Below, one piece after another: positions 1-10,283 of a stretch of DNA of 43,715 bases. Position numbers and translations under genes: made by a program. Source of the stretch: an uncultured Candidatus Saccharibacteria bacterium (GTDB lineage: Bacteria; Patescibacteriota; Minisyncoccia; Phycocordibacterales; UBA918). The stretch covers positions 1 through 43,715 of the forward strand of contig CAZNWG010000004.1 of the NCBI GenBank assembly GCA_964576905.1, given 5' to 3'. The notes beneath the pieces were generated by a model, which saw only the letters and a list, made by a program, of their open reading frames with translations, made no database searches and was not told the DNA's origin. Within the stretch, counting starts at the first letter, position 1. Every line of letters starts with the position of its first letter.

Positions 1-110
1 AAATACTGAAGACGGGGGCGAATGCTTTTCTCACGGGGGAGCCGGGGTCAGGGAAGACGTATGTGCTCAACCGATACATCGACTGCCATAGTGAACACTA
101 TTCCCATTAA
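1..110 (+). pseudogene. Truncated 5' fragment of a PIF1/RecD-like helicase paralog (Walker A region); runs off the left window edge
   Basis: Bases 1-85 align without gaps to 2193-2277 of the intact helicase, with 79/85 identical. Reading from base 3 gives ILKTGANAFLTGEPGSGKTYVLNRYID, then unrelated CHSEHYSH and TAA at 108-110. Confidence 0.6.
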
Positions 111-122
111 TGGGAATAGTGT
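95..122. repeat. Perfect 28-bp palindrome (14+14, no spacer): acactattcccatt/aatgggaatagtgt
   Basis: The reverse complement of 95-108 equals 109-122. It starts 10 bp after helicase homology ends and is followed by ctatttta. Confidence 0.9.
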
Positions 123-187
123 CTATTTTACTAAGGTCACGCCATAGGGAAGTATTCCATTTCCTTCCATAGTGTACTCACAATGTG

Positions 188-216
188 TTGACAATGTGAA
201 TACACAGGATTATGCT
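188..216 (+). promoter_or_regulatory. Sigma70-type promoter of the toxin-antitoxin operon, apparently leaderless
   Basis: TTGACA at 188-193, a 17-nt spacer, TATGCT at 211-216, then 6 nt to the ATG at 223. Confidence 0.6.
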
Positions 217-222
217 GTAGCA

Positions 223-489
223 ATGACAACTTTAAACATACGCATTGAGGAGAAGACAAAGAAGGAAGCGACGAAGACCCTCGCTGCGCTCGGGCTTGAT
301 ATGTCGAGTGCGGTCAAAATGTTTCTTCACCAGGTCGTGATAGAACAGGGAATTCCTTTCAAACCCACACGCACACCACGTGAAATTGTAGATGAATATG
401 ACAAAGAGGTGGCATGGGCATTGAAGCACGGGAAGCGATATACCAACGCATCAGACATGTTTGCTGATATCATGAAAGAGACTGATTAG
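223..489 (+). CDS. dinJ: RelB/DinJ-family antitoxin (ribbon-helix-helix)
   Basis: MTTLNIRIEEKTKKEATKTLAALGLDMSSAVKMFLHQVVIEQGIPF matches the DinJ/RelB N-terminal pattern. It ends 2 nt before the toxin gene. I moved the start to the internal ATG because the promoter lies inside the longer ORF. Confidence 0.85.
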   Translation: MTTLNIRIEEKTKKEATKTLAALGLDMSSAVKMFLHQVVIEQGIPFKPTRTPREIVDEYDKEVAWALKHGKRYTNASDMFADIMKETD

Positions 490-491
490 GT

Positions 492-776
492 ATGTATCAA
501 ATAGTCTACGCAAGGAAATTTGAGAAGTCGCTTACGAGACTGGTGAAGGGTGGACTCAAGAAGTCGACACAGAAGAAAATTATCGAAACAATTGATTTGA
601 TTGCGAGTGGTTCAAAGTTACCTCCGGCATACAGAGATCATCAACTCCATGGCTCGTTTGCAGAATATCGTGAATGCCATGTTCAGGGAGATTTGCTTTT
701 AATGTATCAAATTATCGACGCAGAACTTATACTCTTTATGGTCAATGTAGGTTCGCACAATGATTTGTTTTCATAA
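492..776 (+). CDS. yafQ: YafQ-like RelE/ParE-superfamily mRNA interferase toxin
   Basis: It carries the YafQ hallmark LPPAYRDHQLHGSFAEYRECHVQGDLLLMYQI...VGSHNDLF, and it is 94 aa and paired with the antitoxin. Confidence 0.85.
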   Translation: MYQIVYARKFEKSLTRLVKGGLKKSTQKKIIETIDLIASGSKLPPAYRDHQLHGSFAEYRECHVQGDLLLMYQIIDAELILFMVNVGSHNDLFS

Positions 777-834
777 TACTGTGCAATTTGCCCAAAATCT
801 TGCCGAGGGGAATTTATTACGACACTTATTTCTC

Positions 835-917
835 AAAAATAATGGACCTGTCCCCAATTTCAACAAAAATAACGGACGTATCCCCAATTTCAAAATAACA
901 GATGTATCCTCACTTTT
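835..917. repeat. About 2.7 tandem copies of a 30-bp unit (aaaaataa[tc]ggac[cg]t[ga]tccccaatttcaa)
   Basis: Copy 1 is 835-864, copy 2 is 865-894 and a degenerate copy 3 starts at 895. The repeat lies in the convergent intergenic gap between yafQ and the HDAC-like gene. Confidence 0.8.
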
Positions 918-1003
918 TCATTTTCGTACATCTACCTTGCGTTTGCCGTGATTATCGTATGGGGGGGTTTTGAAATGAGTTCAAATGTTTATAAAGAAAA
1001 AAA

Positions 1004-1020
1004 GCCCGCCGAAGGCGGGC
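1004..1020. terminator. Bidirectional intrinsic terminator hairpin
   Basis: The stem is gcccgcc/ggcgggc with a gaa loop, an A-run before it and tt after it. It sits between convergent genes. Confidence 0.6.
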
Positions 1021-1051
1021 TTAAATTCACTACACATGGCGAAGGGAAGCA

Positions 1052-2020
1052 TTATTGGCCGAGCGCTTGCACGTGTGCGGTCACACACTCACGAAGAGGC
1101 GGGATCGTGTATCCTCCTTCGAGAACTGAGACAATACCCGCACCGCATTCATCCGCAACTCCCGTGAGAATCTTGGTCAAGATTCTGAAATCAGACACGT
1201 CGAGCTGGACTTCCGGACGGAGCGCGTCATCCCTATGCAGGTCAAAACCTGCTGAGATGAGCATGATGCCCGGCTTGTGTTTCCGTATCGCCGGTATCAC
1301 CTTTCTGGTATACAGTGTCAACACCTCACGGTACCCACTACCAAGTGGTAAGGGTACGCGAATCAGCTTCGATTTTGTACCGGTTGGCATCGACCGTTTC
1401 GCGTACTTGCAGTCCTCCTGATACGATGAAATGAACAAGAGTCTCTCGTCGTTCGCATGTGCGATGATCTCCTCCGTCCCATTTCCATGATGACGATCGA
1501 AATCAACGATTGCGACACGAGCGCCTTGGCTTCGCGCTTCAAGTGCTCCGATCGCGACATTGTTGAGGAGGCAAAAGCCCTCACCGCGCTCTCGGCCGGC
1601 GTGATGGCCGGGTGGCCTAACCGCGCAAAAGACGCGCCGACGGTTTCCAAGAAGAACTTCTTCCACGCCGTCACGGACCGCTCCCGCCGCAACCTGAGCC
1701 GCGGTATATGAAACATTGGACGTGCCCAAATACCACTGAAGATACTTGCGGTTTCGGAGCGTATAGAGCATGCCCCGCAAACGGGATATGTCCAAAGACC
1801 CAAAGAGTACATTGAGGTACTCACTCGAATGTGCGCGTAACAAGATCGAATCTGGCGCAATAGATCCCACTCCTTCACGATAGACAGGAAGATCCAACTT
1901 GGTGGGAATCTCACGCAAAACAACCAGTCGATCCGGCGTCTCGGCGGTAAACGGATATGGTTCATGGTGTCGACAATATTTGGGGTGGACCCAAAGCACC
2001 TCTTTCGAGTTTAAGGGCAT
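1052..2020 (-). CDS. Histone deacetylase-family (HDAC/AcuC/acetylpolyamine amidohydrolase-like) Zn hydrolase
   Basis: Motifs RPPGHHAG, FCLLNNVAIGA, VAIVDFDRHHGNGTEEI, SAGFDLHRDD and LEGGY are present. AGGAGG lies 8 nt upstream of the ATG at 2020. Confidence 0.85.
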   Translation of the reverse strand: MPLNSKEVLWVHPKYCRHHEPYPFTAETPDRLVVLREIPTKLDLPVYREGVGSIAPDSILLRAHSSEYLNVLFGSLDISRLRGMLYTLRNRKYLQWYLGTSNVSYTAAQVAAGAVRDGVEEVLLGNRRRVFCAVRPPGHHAGRERGEGFCLLNNVAIGALEARSQGARVAIVDFDRHHGNGTEEIIAHANDERLLFISSYQEDCKYAKRSMPTGTKSKLIRVPLPLGSGYREVLTLYTRKVIPAIRKHKPGIMLISAGFDLHRDDALRPEVQLDVSDFRILTKILTGVADECGAGIVSVLEGGYTIPPLRECVTAHVQALGQ

Positions 2021-2155
2021 GATATGCCTCCTATCAATGAAACTACACAAAAAATTTATACATCAACTTCTGCCGCGAATATATCATCGAAATCGGACTT
2101 TGTCAAAATGTTGCCTTAAATTCACCTCTGAAACGCAACTATCGTTGCTTTGAAA

Positions 2156-2164
2156 TGCTATACT
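2156..2164 (+). promoter_or_regulatory. Extended -10 (TGcTAtAcT) 6 nt before the helicase ATG
   Basis: The sequence reads tgctatact + agtccc + ATG(2171), with no SD. Confidence 0.5.
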
Positions 2165-2170
2165 AGTCCC

Positions 2171-3853
2171 ATGACACAGGGGCAAACACTTGAAATACTG
2201 AAGACGGGGGCGAATGCCTTTCTCACGGGGGAGCCGGGGTCGGGGAAGACGTACGTGCTCAATCAGTACATCGACTGGCTCATGGCGTGCGATATCTCTG
2301 TCGCGGTCACCGCGTCGACCGGTATTGCGGCGACCCACATTGGCGGTACCACCATCCACTCGTGGGCGGGTATTGGTGCGCGCGACACACTCACGCAGTA
2401 CGACCTCGACAACATTATGACGAACGAGAAAACTGTCCGCCGTGTGAAGAAAGCGCGCGTGCTCATCATCGACGAAATCTCAATGCTTGATGGACGGGTG
2501 CTCGAAATGGTGGAGACGGTCTGTCGCACCGTGAAGCAGTCGGGAGAATCTTTTGGTGGCATGCAGGTGGTACTCGTGGGAGACTTCTTCCAGTTGCCAC
2601 CGATTGCGGGGAGGGGGGAGATGTCGCGCTTTGCCTTTGAGTCGCGTGCGTGGGAGAGTGCAAAGTTCCTCACGTGCTACCTCACTGAGCAACACCGCCA
2701 GGAGGACGAGCTCCTCTTGGGGCTCCTCAACTCCATTCGGAAGAACGATGTCGATGAGAGCCACTACACGCTCCTCGGCGAACAGACTGATATTGGGTAC
2801 ACCGACATAGAGCCGACGAAACTCTACACACACAACAGCGATGTCGATAGCATGAACACTTCGCGACTCCGGGAGCTCAACTCGCAGAGTGTGCACTTCA
2901 AAATGGACACGAAGGGCACGAAGCATGTCGTCGAATCACTTGTAAAGAACTGTCTTTCACCCGAGACGCTCGAACTGCGAAAGGAGGCGATGGTGATGTG
3001 CACGAAGAACAACTTTGAGGCGGGTTACGTGAACGGCACCTTGGGTCGCGTGACTGATTTTGATAGAGAGGACGGGTTCCCTGTGATTGAGACGAGCGAT
3101 GGGAGGAGCATAAAAATCTCTCCGCAGTCGTGGTCAGTCATTGAGGACGGGAAGGTGAAGGGGGAAATCACTCAGGTACCACTCCGGCTCGCGTGGGCTA
3201 TCACCGTGCACAAGAGTCAGGGGATGTCACTCGACGCAGCAGAGATTGATTTGCGGAATGCCTTCACCTATGGGCAGGGATATGTGGCACTCTCGCGCGT
3301 ACGCTCGCTCAGTGGTATGAAGATTATTGGCCTCAATTCACAGGCGCTTCTCGTGGACCCACGCGTGGTGCATCGGGATGAGCACTTCCGCGAGGAGTCG
3401 GACGACGCTGAGTTTGTGTTCAATGAAATGGAGAGTGAGGAAGTGACCACGATGCAGAAAAACTTTGTGAACGCATCGGGAGGTAAGTGGGCAGAGAAAG
3501 TGGAGGGCAGAGTGAAGCACGCGGGTGTACCTGTGCGTGAGAATACGTATGCGGTCACCAAGGAACTCGTAGAAAAACGCATGAGTGCGAATGAGATTGC
3601 AAAGGAAAGAGGTATGGCACTCTCTACCATTTGGTCACACATTGAAAAACTTGCTGAAGATAAGGAGATTGGGAGAGAACACGTCGAGAAGCTTATTCCA
3701 TCACAAGCGGTATGGACGGTGGCGTATCCCCACATAGAGAAGGCATTTGCAAAACACGGTACTGAAAAACTGAAACCGGTTTTTGAAGAACTCAATGAAG
3801 CGTACGACTACGACCTCATTCGACTCGGGAGACTCATGTACACCTATAAGTAG
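2171..3853 (+). CDS. PIF1/RecD-like SF1 DNA helicase with a C-terminal helix-turn-helix tail
   Basis: It has Walker A GEPGSGKTY and Walker B VLIIDEISML, plus VLVGDFFQLPP, ITVHKSQGMSLD and YVALSRVRS. The C-terminal segment is ANEIAKERGMALSTIWSHIEKL. Confidence 0.9.
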   Translation: MTQGQTLEILKTGANAFLTGEPGSGKTYVLNQYIDWLMACDISVAVTASTGIAATHIGGTTIHSWAGIGARDTLTQYDLDNIMTNEKTVRRVKKARVLIIDEISMLDGRVLEMVETVCRTVKQSGESFGGMQVVLVGDFFQLPPIAGRGEMSRFAFESRAWESAKFLTCYLTEQHRQEDELLLGLLNSIRKNDVDESHYTLLGEQTDIGYTDIEPTKLYTHNSDVDSMNTSRLRELNSQSVHFKMDTKGTKHVVESLVKNCLSPETLELRKEAMVMCTKNNFEAGYVNGTLGRVTDFDREDGFPVIETSDGRSIKISPQSWSVIEDGKVKGEITQVPLRLAWAITVHKSQGMSLDAAEIDLRNAFTYGQGYVALSRVRSLSGMKIIGLNSQALLVDPRVVHRDEHFREESDDAEFVFNEMESEEVTTMQKNFVNASGGKWAEKVEGRVKHAGVPVRENTYAVTKELVEKRMSANEIAKERGMALSTIWSHIEKLAEDKEIGREHVEKLIPSQAVWTVAYPHIEKAFAKHGTEKLKPVFEELNEAYDYDLIRLGRLMYTYK

Positions 3854-3854
3854 T

Positions 3855-4265
3855 ATGCAGGGTGTTGGATGGTTTCGGGTGAGGAGGAGAGTGAAGACCC
3901 GGCGCCTACGGCGCCGGGGCAGTGACGCGCACTACCGCGCGCACAAGGAACGCGCGCGTGCGCTCGTCCATGAGCGCCTCGCGTACTGGAGTGCGCACTA
4001 CGGGTGTTCGTATGGCAGAGTCGCCATACGCGACCAGCGCACGCGCTGGGGAAGTTGCTCGAGCAAGCAGAACCTCAATTTCAACTACCGCATTATCTTC
4101 CTTCCACCACACCTCGCGGACTACATCATTGTGCACGAACTGTGCCACCTCCTTGAGCTCAACCACTCGGAGCGCTTTTGGGCACACGTCGCGCGCGCAT
4201 GCCCCGAGTACGTAGCACACGTGCAAGAACTGCGCACAATCAACATGCACACACTCACTTCGTGA
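3855..4265 (+). CDS. YgjP-like (DUF45) M48-family metallopeptidase-fold protein
   Basis: It contains RWGSCSSKQNLNFNYRIIFLPPHLADYIIVHELCHLLELNHSERFW (HExxH). It starts 1 nt after the helicase stop. Confidence 0.85.
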   Translation: MQGVGWFRVRRRVKTRRLRRRGSDAHYRAHKERARALVHERLAYWSAHYGCSYGRVAIRDQRTRWGSCSSKQNLNFNYRIIFLPPHLADYIIVHELCHLLELNHSERFWAHVARACPEYVAHVQELRTINMHTLTS

Positions 4266-4287
4266 GTTTTTCGATATTGGTGAAGAG

Positions 4288-4296
4288 TGCTATGAT
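4288..4296 (+). promoter_or_regulatory. Extended -10 (TGcTAtgAT) 6 nt before the ATG
   Basis: The sequence reads tgctatgat + gtacca + ATG(4303). Confidence 0.45.
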
Positions 4297-4302
4297 GTAC
4301 CA

Positions 4303-5538
4303 ATGAAAAAATTTGGATTGTTTTTTGCTTCGGCACTTTTTGCATTTTCGGCGTTCATACACCCCGTATTTGCAGAGGAATCAACCGTAACCATTTACTT
4401 TTTTGGACGCAACGACTGCGCACACTGCACGGAAGAGAAAGCGTTTTTGAAAGAGTACCAGAGTACGGTCGAGGGCGTGACCTACACCTACTACAACGTC
4501 ACTGAAGATGCGAGTGCCAAGGAACTCTTTAATACCGTCATAGAAAAACACGGCCTCTCACACATTACGCCACTCACCGTCGTGGGGGATTCGGTCCTTC
4601 AGGGTTTTGATACCAAAGAGACAACGGGTGCTCAGATTATCGATGCTGTGGCGCGCGCGCGAACGTCAGACATTCGCACGCTCGACGACCACATCGCGCG
4701 CGCGCCAAAACAATCAGAAAGTTTTGTGGGTAGTGGCTGTGACTCAGAGGGGACAGAGTGTACCTCAACGGTCAATCCAAACAAGTTTCAATTCAACCTC
4801 CCCATACTTGGGATTGTTGACTTGAGAACATTTTCACTTTTTTCAATTTCGGCAATTCTTGGCACCATTGATGGTTTCAACCCGTGTGCAATGTGGGTAC
4901 TCATCACGTTCCTCGTCCTCCTCACGCAGGTCGGAGATAGAAAGAAGATGATATTTGTCGCGGGACTCTTCATCCTTGCGGAAGCCATCATGTACAACCT
5001 CATCCTCAATGTGTGGTTTACCACGTGGGACTTTGTAGGGCTCGATGCGGTCGTGACACCACTCGTTGGAGTGCTCGCACTCGGTGGAGGGGCATTTTTC
5101 CTCTACCGTTGGCACAAAAACCGTTTCAAGCCACTCATCTGTGACATTTCTGACCTCGAGACGCAGGGAAAGACGATTGCCAAAATTCAAAAAATTATCG
5201 AACAGCCCACAACCATCATCACCGTGCTCGCGGTTATTGCGATAGCGTTCTCCGTCAACATCATCGAATTTGCGTGCTCGATAGGTATTCCACAGGCGTA
5301 CACCAAAATCCTCGAGCTCAACGACCTCTCCTTCATTTCACGCCAGTTCTACATTCTCGTGTACACCCTCGGCTACATGGTCGATGACCTCATTGTCTTC
5401 GGGCTCGCTATATGGGGCTTCTCACGCCTTGAGTCACATGGCCACAAGTACTCCCAACTCTCACTCCTCATCGGTGGTTTCCTCATGCTCCTTTTAGGCG
5501 CGATACTTATCATTGACCCTGCGATTTTTGTGCTCTAG
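4303..5538 (+). CDS. Secreted thioredoxin/glutaredoxin-fold domain (CAHC) fused to a polytopic DsbD/CcdA-like membrane domain
   Basis: There is a signal peptide, then NDCAHCTEEKAFL. Multiple TM segments follow, with GFNPCAMWVL and EFACSIGIPQ cysteine motifs. Confidence 0.65.
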   Translation: MKKFGLFFASALFAFSAFIHPVFAEESTVTIYFFGRNDCAHCTEEKAFLKEYQSTVEGVTYTYYNVTEDASAKELFNTVIEKHGLSHITPLTVVGDSVLQGFDTKETTGAQIIDAVARARTSDIRTLDDHIARAPKQSESFVGSGCDSEGTECTSTVNPNKFQFNLPILGIVDLRTFSLFSISAILGTIDGFNPCAMWVLITFLVLLTQVGDRKKMIFVAGLFILAEAIMYNLILNVWFTTWDFVGLDAVVTPLVGVLALGGGAFFLYRWHKNRFKPLICDISDLETQGKTIAKIQKIIEQPTTIITVLAVIAIAFSVNIIEFACSIGIPQAYTKILELNDLSFISRQFYILVYTLGYMVDDLIVFGLAIWGFSRLESHGHKYSQLSLLIGGFLMLLLGAILIIDPAIFVL

Positions 5539-5611
5539 GGTGTCAAAAACCACACGTGCCCACTGCTCCAAGGTGGTATACTACTCTCATATTCGTTATT
5601 ACAGCCCTACC

Positions 5612-5983
5612 ATGTTTGGATTATTTCGTTCACCAGATACTGATTTACCTCAATCAAATTTTACTCATTCGAAAGATGATATTATTGCAGCGTTCGCGGA
5701 AGATGAGGCGATGCAGATGAAGCAGAAACAATTCGCAGCCGAGCTCGGAGTGTCTCTTGAAGAGGCAATAGAAGTACGTAAAAAGATTTCAAAAGAATAC
5801 AATGATGCACATATGGTGCGAGGTTTATCTGAGGCAGAGGCAATTGCGGACGTCATTGAAAAAAATCAGAGCTATACCAATGAGCAGATATCAATCATTC
5901 TTAGATCTATATGGGGAGTCGATATGCCCGGAGTTGTTGAGGATCCCCGTGGGCATGAGTCAGTGCACGGTACCCTACACTAA
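5612..5983 (+). CDS. Hypothetical protein
   Basis: This is an ORF from an internal ATG. The longer TTG-started version overlaps the previous gene. I recognise no family. Confidence 0.4.
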   Translation: MFGLFRSPDTDLPQSNFTHSKDDIIAAFAEDEAMQMKQKQFAAELGVSLEEAIEVRKKISKEYNDAHMVRGLSEAEAIADVIEKNQSYTNEQISIILRSIWGVDMPGVVEDPRGHESVHGTLH

Positions 5984-6038
5984 TCACATCTGTTCATGCG
6001 TGACAGTGCACTTTTCATAAACCGTATCGTATATAACC

Positions 6039-7046
6039 ATGCTTTTTAAAAAGAAGAAATTTTCAAGGGAGTCATTCGCAGGGGTGGGTATTATACTCAT
6101 CTTTGCATCGGTTGTGTCCGCATATGCTTATTTTCTTTCGGATGTACTCAACGACCAGTATTCTGTGAGTAACACAGAAATCGGTGGTGGAGCACAACAT
6201 GCGGAAGAAACAAAGAAAGCAGAAGAGGGCACAACAAACATTTGGGAAAATCTTTCAGTACATGGGCTCAGTGGCGAATACTACGAACTCAGTATTCAGG
6301 GCGTTGCAGATGAATTTGCATCTGAAAATTGTATCGGTGGCAGTGATGATGCAACCATTTTTATTCGTGGGAACGGTGATAGTGCAGACCGTAATCAAAT
6401 CCTTGTGGTACAAGATGAGACAAAAGGGAAGCGTACTTCTGTTTTGGCATACGGTGTGCGCGATGCGTGCACCGCACCGCTCGACGGCGACCCCGCAGAG
6501 GTGACCATACCGTACAACGAAAAGGGGTACATCGTCACCACGCGTGCGCTCGGACGACCGACGCAGAGCTTTGAGTATACCATTCAGGGAGACCTCATGT
6601 TTGCGAAAGATGAGTTTGACAATGATTTTCTCGTGCTCGGTGTGCAGAGTGACACGGGTTTTTTTACCGAAACTCAGATGCGCTCTCAGAAAAAAATGAA
6701 GGGAGCCCCGACAGACATCTCGGGACTTTTTGAGTGGAGTGGTTCGGTGTGTTACTTCAGCCCGGAATACCACTGCTCTGATGATTCTGATTCACACACG
6801 TGCGCTCCGGCACAGGTGTGCTGTTTGGATACCAATGAAGACGGTATTTCTGATTCGTGTACTGATGCAACCCCAGCGAGCGATGGTACGGCGACCTGTG
6901 TGACAGGGACACTCACCGATGTCGCATGTCGTGTGTACACAGACGAGTGGGTATTCAGTATAGATGATTTTGTTGCATCACTCTGGAATGTAGATGATGC
7001 AGGTCATTTTAAAGATGCACAGATACGGTTGTATCCAGTGCAGTGA
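6039..7046 (+). CDS. Hypothetical secreted or membrane-anchored protein with a Cys-rich C-terminus
   Basis: It has an N-terminal basic segment plus a TM (MLFKKKKFSRESFAGVGIILIFASVVSAYAYF). The coding-like composition has no competing ORF. Confidence 0.55.
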   Translation: MLFKKKKFSRESFAGVGIILIFASVVSAYAYFLSDVLNDQYSVSNTEIGGGAQHAEETKKAEEGTTNIWENLSVHGLSGEYYELSIQGVADEFASENCIGGSDDATIFIRGNGDSADRNQILVVQDETKGKRTSVLAYGVRDACTAPLDGDPAEVTIPYNEKGYIVTTRALGRPTQSFEYTIQGDLMFAKDEFDNDFLVLGVQSDTGFFTETQMRSQKKMKGAPTDISGLFEWSGSVCYFSPEYHCSDDSDSHTCAPAQVCCLDTNEDGISDSCTDATPASDGTATCVTGTLTDVACRVYTDEWVFSIDDFVASLWNVDDAGHFKDAQIRLYPVQ

Positions 7047-7076
7047 GTGTTATATACAATTAATTCAATAGCATAT

Positions 7077-7346
7077 ATGTCATCAACACATTTTGAGGGA
7101 AGCAACGAAAAGCTGACACCACGTCAAGCACAAGCGCGTGGCATGTATCCACTTACTCCAAAGCAAGCACGAGCACAGGGTATTCCATTCGAAAAACAAA
7201 GAAGTATAGAACCAAAAACAGGCGCAGACGGTGAATATGATCTCGGAGTGACAAGTGCAGTTTTTGGTGATGAACCGGGACCAAAACCACTCTATGAACT
7301 ATCCCACGATGGAGATAAAAATGATCCTCTCAAGCGTGCTCATTAG
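7077..7346 (+). CDS. Hypothetical small protein with an internal LTP[RK]QA[QR]A[RQ]G duplication
   Basis: This is an ORF only, with the start chosen at its first ATG. The track start at 7047 is a GTG. Confidence 0.35.
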   Translation: MSSTHFEGSNEKLTPRQAQARGMYPLTPKQARAQGIPFEKQRSIEPKTGADGEYDLGVTSAVFGDEPGPKPLYELSHDGDKNDPLKRAH

Positions 7347-7418
7347 TTCATTTCAGGATATATCGCTTTTTCCTCCTTGGTATATACTATATACATTTAT
7401 ACACTAATTTTATAAAGC

Positions 7419-7688
7419 ATGAGCCATCCATTCGAGCAAATTTTTGAAAAAGCTCTCGAACGAAGTCGTGGTGATGAGAACCATGTACTCGGAGAGGCAG
7501 AAAAGTTGCGTGAAAGTGGGTACGCAGGAAGTGAGATATACACAGTGCTTCGTAACATGAAGCAGTCACACATCAACCCGGCCGATGAAGAGATTCTCGA
7601 CGAGGCGCTCGAAGAGTTCGCGCAGTATGTCGAGATAGACAGTATCTCTGAGTCAGAAGAGGTCACTGATGATTGGGAGGATGAATAG
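7419..7688 (+). CDS. Hypothetical acidic protein
   Basis: An 89-aa ORF with an acidic C-terminal tail, followed by a terminator at 7755-7783. Confidence 0.45.
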   Translation: MSHPFEQIFEKALERSRGDENHVLGEAEKLRESGYAGSEIYTVLRNMKQSHINPADEEILDEALEEFAQYVEIDSISESEEVTDDWEDE

Positions 7689-7754
7689 CGCCCAAGACTC
7701 ATTTTTTATACTGTGGAGCTCACAGATGCCTTTAGTGTTTTGTATCAAAATATG

Positions 7755-7783
7755 AAAAAGCGCCGATAGATTGGCGCTTTTTT
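7755..7783. terminator. Bidirectional intrinsic terminator
   Basis: The sequence is aaaaagcgcc-gatagatt-ggcgcttttt, lying between convergent genes. Confidence 0.7.
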
Positions 7784-7802
7784 GATTTTGGAACGTTGCC
7801 GT

Positions 7803-8138
7803 TCAGCAAGTGTGCTTGTTGCAGTGACGACAACCAGTCGTCACTGAGCCTTCGATAATCGGTCCAAGTCCAAACTCACGGACGATCATCACCAAAAACT
7901 GGATCTTTCGCCTCACTTCCGTAGGCGCCTGGGGGTTGATGACAAACCAGAAGTCGCATTCGCCATCGGTGAGGTGAAAATCGAAATCTTCCCGTATGCC
8001 CGGGTTAAGTCCTTTGTCGATTGTCTTAAGGACATCCGCAAGTTTCGCAACAGTGACGCCACGTTGGGGGATGCGGACCTTCATCCTGCAGAGGCCGATG
8101 TTGTCAGCTGGATCTGGGATGCAAACAATTTTGGGCAT
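7803..8138 (-). CDS. Hypothetical protein (C-terminal CRHCNKHTC)
   Basis: A 111-aa ORF. I recognise no family. Confidence 0.45.
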   Translation of the reverse strand: MPKIVCIPDPADNIGLCRMKVRIPQRGVTVAKLADVLKTIDKGLNPGIREDFDFHLTDGECDFWFVINPQAPTEVRRKIQFLVMIVREFGLGPIIEGSVTTGCRHCNKHTC

Positions 8139-8231
8139 TCAAAAAACTCCTGTAAAAGATTGTAGGTGGGAACAACAAAAACCAATATGATAGTATACAG
8201 AAATAACTATTTGTCAATATTTAAAAGAATT

Positions 8232-8258
8232 AACCCAAAACGCGGAGCGTTTCGGGTT
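8232..8258 (-). terminator. Intrinsic terminator hairpin
   Basis: aacccaaaacgc-gga-gcgtttcgggtt forms a 12-bp stem with one mismatch (a G.U pair on the minus strand) and T-rich flanks. Confidence 0.5.
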
Positions 8259-8282
8259 ATTTTATCTTTTTAGTCAAGGTCT

Positions 8283-8612
8283 TCATTCGTCTCGTCTTTT
8301 TTCAGGAGTGAGACCGTCTGATATCCTAAGTTCGTGTTCTTGGGCATCTCTCATGAAGGACTCATCAGTAATAGGTAAAGAGAGGGCATTCTTGACCTGT
8401 ATGATTATTGAATTAAATATTTCCTTCGGAATACTTACGTTCGCTCGGGCGGTGAGTCTAACTTTTCTCTCAGTGTCTAATGCGAACATGTACTCTCTTC
8501 CTTCCCACGTGACGATACATCTGTTTTGTCCTTCATGTAGTTCGTACCGCACACCATCCACTTTCCAAATTTTAGGTAGTTTTGAGCTTTCACCTCCTTC
8601 AAATCCTGCCAT
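8283..8612 (-). CDS. Hypothetical protein
   Basis: A 109-aa ORF with its own downstream hairpin. Confidence 0.45.
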   Translation of the reverse strand: MAGFEGGESSKLPKIWKVDGVRYELHEGQNRCIVTWEGREYMFALDTERKVRLTARANVSIPKEIFNSIIIQVKNALSLPITDESFMRDAQEHELRISDGLTPEKRRDE

Positions 8613-8682
8613 ATCGTATTTGCTTATGTATAAAAATTGTCATTCATCATGTCAAAGAGAGGGGATGAGTCCATGACACACC

Positions 8683-9138
8683 CTACTTCAGTACCTCCTC
8701 CACGACAGCCTTCACATCGGCGCCGTCCGCCTTTCCCTGGAGCTCTTTCATGAGAGCGCCGATGAGCATACCCATCTTCGATTTGTCGGGGGCTCCCAGC
8801 TCTGCGATTTTCGCTTCGACAATTGGACGGATTTCTTCATGACTCATGAGCTTGGGGAGGTACGATTCGAGTACCGCAAGTTCCTCACGTTCAATCACTG
8901 CAAGGTCCTCGCGACCACCGGCTTCAAACTGCTGGATTGAGTCCTTGCGCTGTTTTGCGAGGCGTTTGATGACGGTGAGCACCCCCGCATCATCGAGGGG
9001 TGTCTGCGGGGTGCGACCCGTGGCGACGAGCTCATTCATAAATGCGGTGAGCATACTGCGCACCGTGCGGAGCTTCACTTCATCGTGTGCCTTCATTGCT
9101 GTCTTCAATTCTTCTCTAATTTGTGTTTGTAAGTCCAT
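8683..9138 (-). CDS. GatB/YqeY domain protein
   Basis: MDLQTQIREELKTAMKAHDEVKLRTVRSMLTAFMNE... is a typical YqeY N-terminus, and the 151-aa length fits. Confidence 0.85.
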   Translation of the reverse strand: MDLQTQIREELKTAMKAHDEVKLRTVRSMLTAFMNELVATGRTPQTPLDDAGVLTVIKRLAKQRKDSIQQFEAGGREDLAVIEREELAVLESYLPKLMSHEEIRPIVEAKIAELGAPDKSKMGMLIGALMKELQGKADGADVKAVVEEVLK

Positions 9139-9178
9139 AATGTGCTTAATTTAGAGTTCTATAGTACCACAAAACTCA

Positions 9179-9187
9179 TGGTAGAAT
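9179..9187 (+). promoter_or_regulatory. Extended -10 (TGgTAgAAT) 7 nt before the rmuC ATG
   Basis: The sequence reads tggtagaat + aatcaat + ATG(9195). Confidence 0.5.
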
Positions 9188-9194
9188 AATCAAT

Positions 9195-10283
9195 ATGAAT
9201 ACAATTGAAATTGGAATCTTCCTGTTACTCATCGCCATTGTGGCGATACTCGTGTACGTCTTTTTCCTCAAGAGGGAAGAGAAGGACACGCAGTCTTCTG
9301 ATGGGCTCATGATGCTTCAGCAACAGTTGCACGACCTCACGCGCACCATGGACGAGCGCATCGGTGAGACGAACCGGGTGATGCAGGAGGGGTCCCGCGC
9401 GCAGTTTCGAGAGAGTAGGGAGCTCATTCAGGAAATCAACAAAGAGGTGAACGAGCAGTTGCGCAACGTCGTGCGGGGTGTCACCGAGGTGTCGGAGTCC
9501 TCAAAGCAGGTGTTCACCATCGCGGACCAACTCCAAAACCTTGAAAAAATTCTCACGCACCAGAAGCAGAGGGGGAACCTCGGTGAGGCGTCACTCCAGC
9601 TCGCACTCGAAAACATGCTCCCCGCAACCGCGTACAAACTCCAGTACGGTTTCCCCGGGGGTGATGCGGTCGATGCGGTCATTATCACCAAAGACGGGAT
9701 GATACCGGTCGATGCGAAGTTCTCGCTCGACAACTACCGCCGTCTCGTGGATGAGACAAACCCCGAAAAGAAAGAAGAGCTTGAGAAGGAGTTCAAGAAC
9801 GATCTCAAAAAGCGCATCGACGAGACTGCGAAGTACATCAGGCCAAAGGACGGCACGCTCCCGTTTGCCTTCATGTACATTCCCGCAGAGGCAATCTACT
9901 ACGACCTCCTTGTGAATGAAGTGGGTGCGGTGAAGGTCAATACGCGCTCACTCATCGACTACGCGTACAAAGACAAGAACGTCATCATCGTGTCACCAAC
10001 CACCTTCGCCGCTTACCTTCAATCGGTACTCTACGGCTTCCGCGCGTTCAAGATAGAGGAGTCCGCAAAGCAGATAGGGAAGCATGTGGAGGGTCTCGCG
10101 CGTCACCTCAAGGCGTACGACGACTACTTCAAGAAGGTGGGTATCTCACTGGGGACCACGGTCAACCACTACAACGCCGCGCAGAAAGAGCTCGGAAAGG
10201 TAGACAAAGACGTAGCAAAAATCACCGACGGAGGTATTGACTTCGAGACAATCGCACTCGAAAAGCCGACTCAGGGGGAATAG
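9195..10283 (+). CDS. rmuC: DNA recombination protein RmuC
   Basis: There is an N-terminal TM, a coiled coil, then DAVIITKDGMIPVDAKFSLDNY and LPFAFMYIPAEAIYYDL. Confidence 0.85.
   Translation: MNTIEIGIFLLLIAIVAILVYVFFLKREEKDTQSSDGLMMLQQQLHDLTRTMDERIGETNRVMQEGSRAQFRESRELIQEINKEVNEQLRNVVRGVTEVSESSKQVFTIADQLQNLEKILTHQKQRGNLGEASLQLALENMLPATAYKLQYGFPGGDAVDAVIITKDGMIPVDAKFSLDNYRRLVDETNPEKKEELEKEFKNDLKKRIDETAKYIRPKDGTLPFAFMYIPAEAIYYDLLVNEVGAVKVNTRSLIDYAYKDKNVIIVSPTTFAAYLQSVLYGFRAFKIEESAKQIGKHVEGLARHLKAYDDYFKKVGISLGTTVNHYNAAQKELGKVDKDVAKITDGGIDFETIALEKPTQGE

Follow-up and report, generated by a model that had tools for sequence, protein, structure and literature searches.

An orphaned helicase start as a recombination scar between tRNA-Glu and a Pif1-like helicase gene in a Candidatus Saccharibacteria genome

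Integrative elements such as phage 21 and e14 in icd, as well as the islands that target tRNA genes, replace the end of a gene at their attachment (att) site. The minimal mobile elements of Neisseria, credited to Saunders and Snyder in 2002 (Microbiology 148:3756, as listed in PMC1538595), reportedly consist of alternative cassettes between two conserved genes, lack dedicated mobility genes and are exchanged via flanking homology. The present report concerns the left end of contig CAZNWG010000004.1 (GCA_964576905.1) of an uncultured Candidatus Saccharibacteria bacterium; the whole 43,715-nt stretch of this contig is referred to as the window. At this end, the start of a core Pif1-type helicase gene lies orphaned upstream of the intact gene and is separated from it by a toxin-antitoxin (TA) pair and a histone deacetylase (HDAC)-family gene. 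A displacement model has been published for the effector-immunity arrays of the T6SS (type VI secretion system) and for Rhs loci, and homology-facilitated illegitimate recombination (HFIR) was proposed as its mechanism (Kirchberger et al. 2017, PMC5361080). As far as it is described in the citing paper, the orphan arrays of Rhs and contact-dependent inhibition (CDI) loci involve displacement of C-termini (Jackson et al. 2009, as cited in PMC5361080). HFIR itself was reported for naturally transformable bacteria, according to the accounts given of these studies in two later papers (de Vries & Wackernagel 2002, Prudhomme et al. 2002 and Meier & Wackernagel 2003, via PMC5361080 and PMC3240628).

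The locus shares with the Rhs, CDI and T6SS arrays a conserved anchor gene whose functional end is taken over by an incoming module while the old end is kept as a homologous orphan, and it likewise forms heterogeneous arrays without an integrase. However, here the helicase promoter and 5' end were pushed upstream, whereas in those arrays the 3' tip of a toxin gene is pushed downstream; moreover, the cargo here is a set of unrelated accessory genes in a host from the candidate phyla radiation (CPR), instead of cognate toxin/immunity pairs. The locus may thus be regarded as analogous to the Rhs/T6SS displacement model, as its 5'-end counterpart. In common with the Neisseria elements, the interval is fixed by two conserved genes, tRNA-Glu and the helicase, and holds different cargo in different strains; unlike the clean swaps of classical minimal mobile elements, the events here were imperfect and left partial duplicates of both border genes and a two-slot array. 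Elements of the phage 21/e14 type resemble the locus in their gene-end direct repeats, in the mostly synonymous replacement and in the intact state of the target gene, but here the insert is a composite without an integrase, the positions of the breaks are not constant, and it is the promoter and 5' end, not the 3' end, that are replaced.

The window belongs to a 946-kb metagenome-assembled genome (MAG), G000, and starts right at the end of one of its contigs, C4. Independent public contigs were recovered via exact-protein look-ups of the genes of the window; one of them, L044, is 100% identical to window positions 1-9908 and adds 1111 nt upstream. The relatives compared included a sister species (G018), a species with a closed genome (G016) and a member of a different genus (G123). 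Helicase copy number was surveyed in the 149 family genomes possessing the gene, and the interval upstream of the helicase in the 10 genus genomes with tRNA-Glu(CTC) and the helicase on the same contig. Domains were assigned with Pfam, and matches within the genome were found by BLAST.

The orphan helicase start and its allelic partner

The two copies of the helicase start consist of the following parts.

1-85, forward strand: orphan (displaced) helicase 5' fragment, codons 8-36, identical to 2193-2277 at 79 of 85 positions
L044 1070-1111: off-window part of the orphan (promoter, ATG and codons 1-7), 42 nt long, beyond the contig end
86-110, forward strand: non-homologous tail of the orphan open reading frame (ORF), with the stop at 108-110
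2152-2277, forward strand: right copy of the 127-nt repeat, with the -10 element TATACT at 2159-2164, the ATG at 2171 and codons 1-36
2171-3853, forward strand: intact core Pif1-like helicase gene, 560 aa, with a C-terminal HTH_40 domain (Pfam PIF1 and HTH_40, 2171-3850)

The alignment of the two copies within the window is free of gaps, and no other match to positions 1-85 than 2193-2277 was found in the 946-kb genome (BLAST E = 2e-30). Four of the six differences are synonymous (gct/gcc, tca/tcg, tat/tac and aac/aat), and the remaining two fall in one codon (cga/cag, R/Q). Homology ends at 85/86. An earlier note on this DNA, made from the letters alone, had described the same match, differences, end of homology and stop, all of which the alignment bore out. 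Since the window begins at base 1 of C4, the repeat is seen there as cut by the contig end. Its full length is 127 nt (11 mismatches and one gap between L044 1070-1196 and window 2152-2277), and it takes in the -10 region, the ATG and 36 helicase codons. The orphan ORF has 43 codons (MTQGQTLEILKTGANAFLTGEPGSGKTYVLNRYIDCHSEHYSH): the 36 helicase codons are followed by 7 foreign codons and the stop. The left copy is therefore what remains of a core Pif1-type helicase gene, namely its promoter and opening 36 codons, now orphaned. In annotation, the 43-codon ORF should be labelled a fragment of a pseudogene instead of an "AAA ATPase".

What comes before the orphan on the public contigs is a 180-aa ORF, together with genes for a MIP aquaporin, a small membrane protein and a large secreted protein. 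No second helicase was found upstream of the window on L044 and the other public contigs, where the orphan consists of just the promoter, the ATG and 36 codons. This excludes the full, intact helicase upstream that the earlier note had named as the case against its reading. The search of the G000 assembly revealed no contig with tRNA-Glu(CTC), no aquaporin region and no 180-aa ORF region; therefore, the MAG could not be extended leftwards. G000 has one full helicase gene, as do nearly all 149 genomes of the family that were surveyed, so there is no resident helicase paralog, and the suggestion that such a paralog had been truncated by an insertion was abandoned.

The junction between the orphan and the sequence downstream lies after nt 107 of the helicase coding sequence (CDS). 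The exact 23-nt string across it was found in contigs of 8 different runs or assemblies, and the k-mers spanning positions 72-106 are unique to it. Because these 8 independent assemblies contain an identical junction, it is not an assembly artefact. A 28-nt palindrome (hairpin C) begins 9 nt past the junction.

The 36 shared codons differ by 7 synonymous changes and the single R/Q codon, and R is the normal residue at this codon in the helicases of G016 and of a further relative, G006. Since nearly all of the differences are synonymous and R occurs naturally in relatives, the copies are two alleles and not a slippage duplicate. Of the pair "alleles or paralogs" offered in the earlier note, only the alleles stood. 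The left copy is nearer to the helicase of G018 (81/85) than to the helicase of its own genome (79/85). The copies are thus alleles under protein-level constraint that came from horizontal exchange and not from local duplication.

The strains sharing this arrangement differ from the window by no more than 1.5% overall, and their differences are clustered. Contig L045 is 99.2% identical to the window, with the differences concentrated in a few dense patches (4422-4440, 5169-5430 and 9530-9749), of which the densest contains 35 single-nucleotide polymorphisms (SNPs) in 260 nt at 5169-5430. In its orphan fragment, 8 of the 85 positions differ from the window, while the 704 nt upstream and the 290 nt downstream are identical; this 8-SNP patch, restricted to the fragment, represents a third helicase allele (N-V-F-L-T). 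To judge from their distribution, the patchy differences indicate that short tracts are often acquired from diverged relatives by recombination. Compared in sliding windows, the helicase genes of G000, G018, G016, G020 and G013 showed no clear mosaic breakpoint.

The slot between tRNA-Glu and the helicase

A tRNA-Glu(CTC) gene was found upstream of the helicase in 10/10 of the genus genomes with both genes on one contig, on the opposite strand and with its 5' end facing the helicase. The gap between the two genes ranges from 260 bp (G014) to 2.7 kb (G005) or more, and many MAG contigs end 0.3-2.2 kb upstream of the helicase. The cargo of this slot is unrelated between species; membrane proteins, ORFs resembling phosphoesterases or DUF454 proteins, and the TA pair are among it. 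The empty sites that the earlier note had recommended looking for do exist in relatives, at least in near-empty form: in addition to the 260-bp gap of G014, a gap of about 245 bp was found on contig L053. The interval thus combines a conserved tRNA-Glu(CTC) and helicase with alternative cargo and an absence of mobility genes, as expected for a hotspot of the minimal mobile element type. The slot in front of the helicase is a hypervariable recombination hotspot.

In the window, the slot contains the following features.

95-122, forward strand: 28-nt perfect palindrome (hairpin C), followed by CTATTTTACT; terminator-like (fold -25 kcal/mol, z -6.7)
188-216, forward strand: promoter-like site of the TA pair, TTGACA-17-TATGCT (L044 1299-1327), with the -35 element conserved in G016
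223-489, forward strand: dinJ/relB-type antitoxin gene (Pfam-confirmed 223-486, PF04221, E = 4e-12; 93% aa identity to G016)
492-776, forward strand: yafQ-type toxin gene (Pfam-confirmed 492-773, PF15738, E = 2.5e-25)
835-917, forward strand: 30-nt iteron-like tandem repeats, two good copies and one decayed, common to contigs L067/L071 and weakly to G018
1002-1022, reverse strand: predicted intrinsic terminator of the HDAC-like gene
1052-2020, reverse strand: HDAC-family (Hist_deacetyl) gene, 322 aa (PF00850, E = 2e-59; 80% aa identity to G018)
2078-2106, reverse strand: promoter-like site of the HDAC gene, TTGACA-17-TATATT with TG (L044 3217-3189), divergent from the helicase promoter

The antitoxin gene lies directly 5' of the toxin gene at a distance of 2 nt, a promoter-like site is located upstream, and the Pfam scores of both products exceed the cut-offs, as in a DinJ-YafQ pair. 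RelB, YafQ and HDAC were the only ORF and Pfam matches in 86-2192. Hence, the TA pair, the reverse-strand HDAC-family gene and the PIF1-like helicase had been recognised correctly in the earlier note. An identical HDAC protein is encoded on 13 public contigs.

The insert proved to be modular. The TA module (173-769) has 81% nt identity to G016, where tRNA-Glu and the helicase enclose it and the HDAC gene is lacking. There, it is bracketed by direct repeats of about 40 nt with the palindromic core cataggccttgcctatg (contig L026 of G016, 6125-6160 and 6820-6860), of which the G016 genome has just two full copies; the TA pair may by itself constitute a small mobile module. The block comprising the HDAC gene, the intergenic region and the helicase start (1052-2253) is 86% identical to G018 and is contiguous both there and in L067/L071. 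On the latter two contigs, which lack the TA pair, the HDAC protein is identical and the window sequence is present from position 800 onward. Because the TA and HDAC modules occur apart, the insert is a composite and not the single 2.1-kb cassette proposed earlier, although the proposed structure, in which inserted DNA carries its own replacement 5' end of the target gene, was upheld. The contiguity of the block supports the view that the functional helicase 5' end and promoter would travel together with the HDAC module.

Analogous scars were found in relatives. In G018, the order is the HDAC gene (-), a promoter, a helicase fragment broken after CDS nt ~84, three hairpins, an iteron-like sequence, a small ORF (-), a promoter and the intact helicase; its two helicase starts differ by 1 mismatch in 84 nt. 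In L067/L071, the small ORF (-) comes first, followed by a promoter, a decayed helicase fragment, hairpins as in G018, iterons, the HDAC gene (-), a promoter and the intact helicase. The positions of the HDAC gene and the small ORF are thus swapped between the two slots, while the alignment shows one colinear homologous junction in G018, L067 and L071. This shared junction is the older one, and the two slots exchanged their cargo after it had formed. Since the junction of the window is located at a different position, it is an independent event; hairpin C, whose homologues align in G018, L067 and L071, forms the left edge of its second slot. A third junction is present in G123, where the fragment ends after nt 99 and its ATG lies 763 nt upstream of that of the intact gene. 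The crossover position therefore differs among the independent insertions (CDS nt 107, ~84 and 99), and the adjoining sequences are unrelated. None of the small ORFs that were searched in the inserts of G018, G016 and G123 gave a Pfam family.

The tRNA border is scarred as well. Copies of the 5' end of tRNA-Glu(CTC), 19 nt in length, were found on the slot side, 100-200 nt from the intact tRNA gene, in G016 (L026 5793-6005), in L053 (240-454) and in the gap of G015; in the gap of G007, the matches are shorter (13-15 nt). The scar of L053 has the tRNA allele of another lineage. Both genes bordering the slot thus gather partial allelic duplicates of their slot-facing ends, and the tRNA scars mirror the helicase scars.

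Recombinase genes are absent from the window and from all three insert types (0.66-2.1 kb). No tyrosine or serine recombinase gene was found on the window contig; the sole matches in the genome are located on C14, which has its only tyrosine recombinase gene, and on C1. The absence of an integrase from the window, as stated in the earlier note, was thus confirmed. The locus does not fit an integron, with IntI, attI and attC-bounded cassettes: the only tyrosine recombinase gene is the one on C14, and the edge hairpins are not common to the modules, except for hairpin C. ComEC and RecA are encoded in the genome. In L053 (1-5754, ENA ERZ27247837), the 3' end of tRNA-Glu adjoins genes for a 566-aa large serine recombinase (Resolvase and Recombinase domains) and a DUF5659 protein as well as a 179-aa ORF; this region is a probable integrative element beside the hotspot. 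The 179-aa ORF shares 80% identity with the 180-aa ORF that precedes the orphan fragment. A further homologue was observed on contig L052, beside a reverse transcriptase gene.

Several other features of the region were recorded. A conserved "left framework", made up of the iteron-like repeats (835-917) and of hairpins A, B and C, is common to the species while the cargo differs; its repeats and hairpins may serve as binding sites, terminators or recombination arms. Hairpin C has just 2 related copies elsewhere in the genome, and neither the hairpin and iteron motifs nor the CATAG motif found at several junctions are dispersed elements in the genome. For hairpin B, the 52-nt repeat form is likewise not dispersed, but its core palindrome CCTAGGACATC.GATGTCCTAGG (contig L025 of G018, 2455-2485) occurs at many sites in G018, G000 and G016 and resembles a hairpin of the repetitive extragenic palindrome (REP) or terminator type. 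Four G-runs (G5, G5, G4 and G4) were noted on the coding strand in the P-loop region of the helicase at 2206-2245 (CDS nt 36-75), a tract that could be prone to G-quadruplex formation; all three scar break points lie immediately 3' of it. On contigs L075-L078 of other Patescibacteria, truncated N-terminal helicase ORFs with breaks near aa 43 and aa 49 were observed beside an AbiEii-family gene and others; these ORFs (including P0011 and P0014), which lie on short contigs, may be further displaced 5' ends. Contigs C44 and C50 of G000 each carry a cluster of tRNA-Cys, tRNA-Leu(TAG) and tRNA-Trp, and the shared cluster could be a strain duplicate or MAG redundancy.

Origin of the scar

The reading that we favour, with a probability of about 0.62, is that window positions 1-85 are the displaced original helicase start, left behind when two versions of the slot were joined by recombination between haplotypes. 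Version 1 would have consisted of the aquaporin gene and genes preceding it, the 180-aa ORF, a helicase promoter and the helicase, and version 2 of the hairpin, the DinJ-YafQ pair, the iteron-like repeats, the HDAC gene, a helicase promoter and the helicase. The two versions would have been joined head to tail in the lineage of G000 by a single crossover in the flanking sequence common to both and an illegitimate join within the helicase 5' region, the latter connecting the helicase of version 1 after CDS nt 107 to the point 9 nt before the hairpin of version 2. Such a process would correspond to HFIR or to unequal crossing-over between haplotypes; integration of a circularised segment by a single crossover would be an equivalent route with the same product as the linear model. 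The working helicase would then retain the promoter and 5' end delivered with the HDAC module, and the older start would stay upstream as the 43-codon orphan ORF, which runs into a terminator-like hairpin. As in HFIR, a homologous anchor and an illegitimate join would have placed foreign DNA beside a conserved gene, in a genome that encodes ComEC and RecA. Unlike in the transformable bacteria, we infer the mechanism, and which version was donor and which recipient, from the end products alone.

Several observations weigh against this scheme. No parental single-slot haplotypes of this species were present among the contigs searched. In particular, the haplotype with the 180-aa ORF directly followed by an intact helicase was not found; the contigs with that ORF have the scar or break off inside it. 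A scan of Joint Genome Institute (JGI) metagenome contigs with a 25-nt conserved helicase string gave no match. HFIR is rare in experimental systems (PMC5361080). In addition, the break points of three independent events all lie in a 25-nt stretch (CDS nt 84-107) of a 1.68-kb gene. This clustering is tighter than would be expected of random illegitimate joins and might reflect a preferred site or the action of a site-specific enzyme. With n = 3, it may be a matter of chance, of short repeats being the ones that survive, of selection acting on truncated helicases of greater length, of a fragile site or of a site-specific activity that works in trans.

The clustered break points would be accounted for if 86-2277 were a site-specific non-autonomous cassette whose att site mimics the helicase promoter and 5' end, with the integrase acting in trans or lost. 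Direct repeats of about 100-130 nt flank inserts in three lineages, each insert supplies an intact promoter and 5' end, near-empty sites exist in G014 and L053, and L053 has the serine recombinase element at the locus beside tRNA-Glu, together with the 80%-identical 179-aa ORF. However, that element lies on the far (3') side of the tRNA and not at the helicase, and serine integrases are not known to create long repeats. The break points and junction-adjacent sequences vary by type, no insert type contains a recombinase gene, and the supposed element is a composite of modules that occur apart, which makes such a cassette unlikely. Integration of the Campbell type, in which a circle (an excised slot or a small plasmid-like DNA) enters via one crossover by RecA in its own 127-nt helicase 5' segment, would yield exactly the product seen. 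It is consistent with the plasmid-like features of the insert (iteron-like repeats and a TA pair) and with G018 and L067 being circular permutations around the same junction, and recombination between the repeats would regenerate circles. We nevertheless regard it as an improbable origin, no better placed than the cassette: no replication initiator gene and no circular contig were seen, cargo swapping via homologous arms explains the permutation equally well, and the closure junction of the circle itself would still need an illegitimate join. Slightly more doubtful again is the idea that the helicase promoter and G-rich P-loop start form a preferred docking or breakage site that repeatedly captures integrase-less cassettes with a replacement promoter and 5' end, giving rise to a multi-slot array in CPR bacteria. 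If it were true, the locus would represent a homology- or structure-guided cassette-capture system, the clustering of breaks within 25 nt would be mechanistic and not due to chance, and a possible trigger would be the G-quadruplex-prone tract in the helicase's own gene.

Two further origins have very little in their favour. Tandem duplication of the helicase start in situ, with later divergence and subsequent insertion of cargo, is suggested by the nearly identical copies of G018 (1 mismatch in 84 nt), but it is highly improbable for the window, where the copies are about 9% apart with almost all differences synonymous, whereas strains sharing the arrangement differ by no more than 1.5% overall; moreover, the left copy is like the alleles of other lineages, and the promoters preceding the repeat bear no relation to each other. 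A chimera of the assembly, or an artefact of strain mixing, at the contig end came to mind because the repeat lies exactly at the end of the MAG contig and many contigs break in this region. It is effectively refuted by the recurrence of the same junction inside contigs from 8 independent assemblies made with different pipelines; the junction-specific k-mers across 72-106 and the analogous internal duplications in G018 and G123 also speak against it.

Implications for CPR bacteria

The locus is a recombination scar of a known type in an under-studied lineage and not a new kind of mobile element. CPR bacteria are thought to depend heavily on DNA uptake, and the locus provides a sequence-resolved example of how these ultra-small bacteria gain and stack accessory genes (here, a toxin-antitoxin pair, a deacetylase, an aquaporin and secreted proteins) without dedicated mobile-element enzymes. 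It also demonstrates that the promoter and 5' end of a conserved gene can be replaced, with an allelic fossil remaining, and the scars at the 5' ends of the helicase and tRNA-Glu genes are usable as markers of recombination history in metagenomes.

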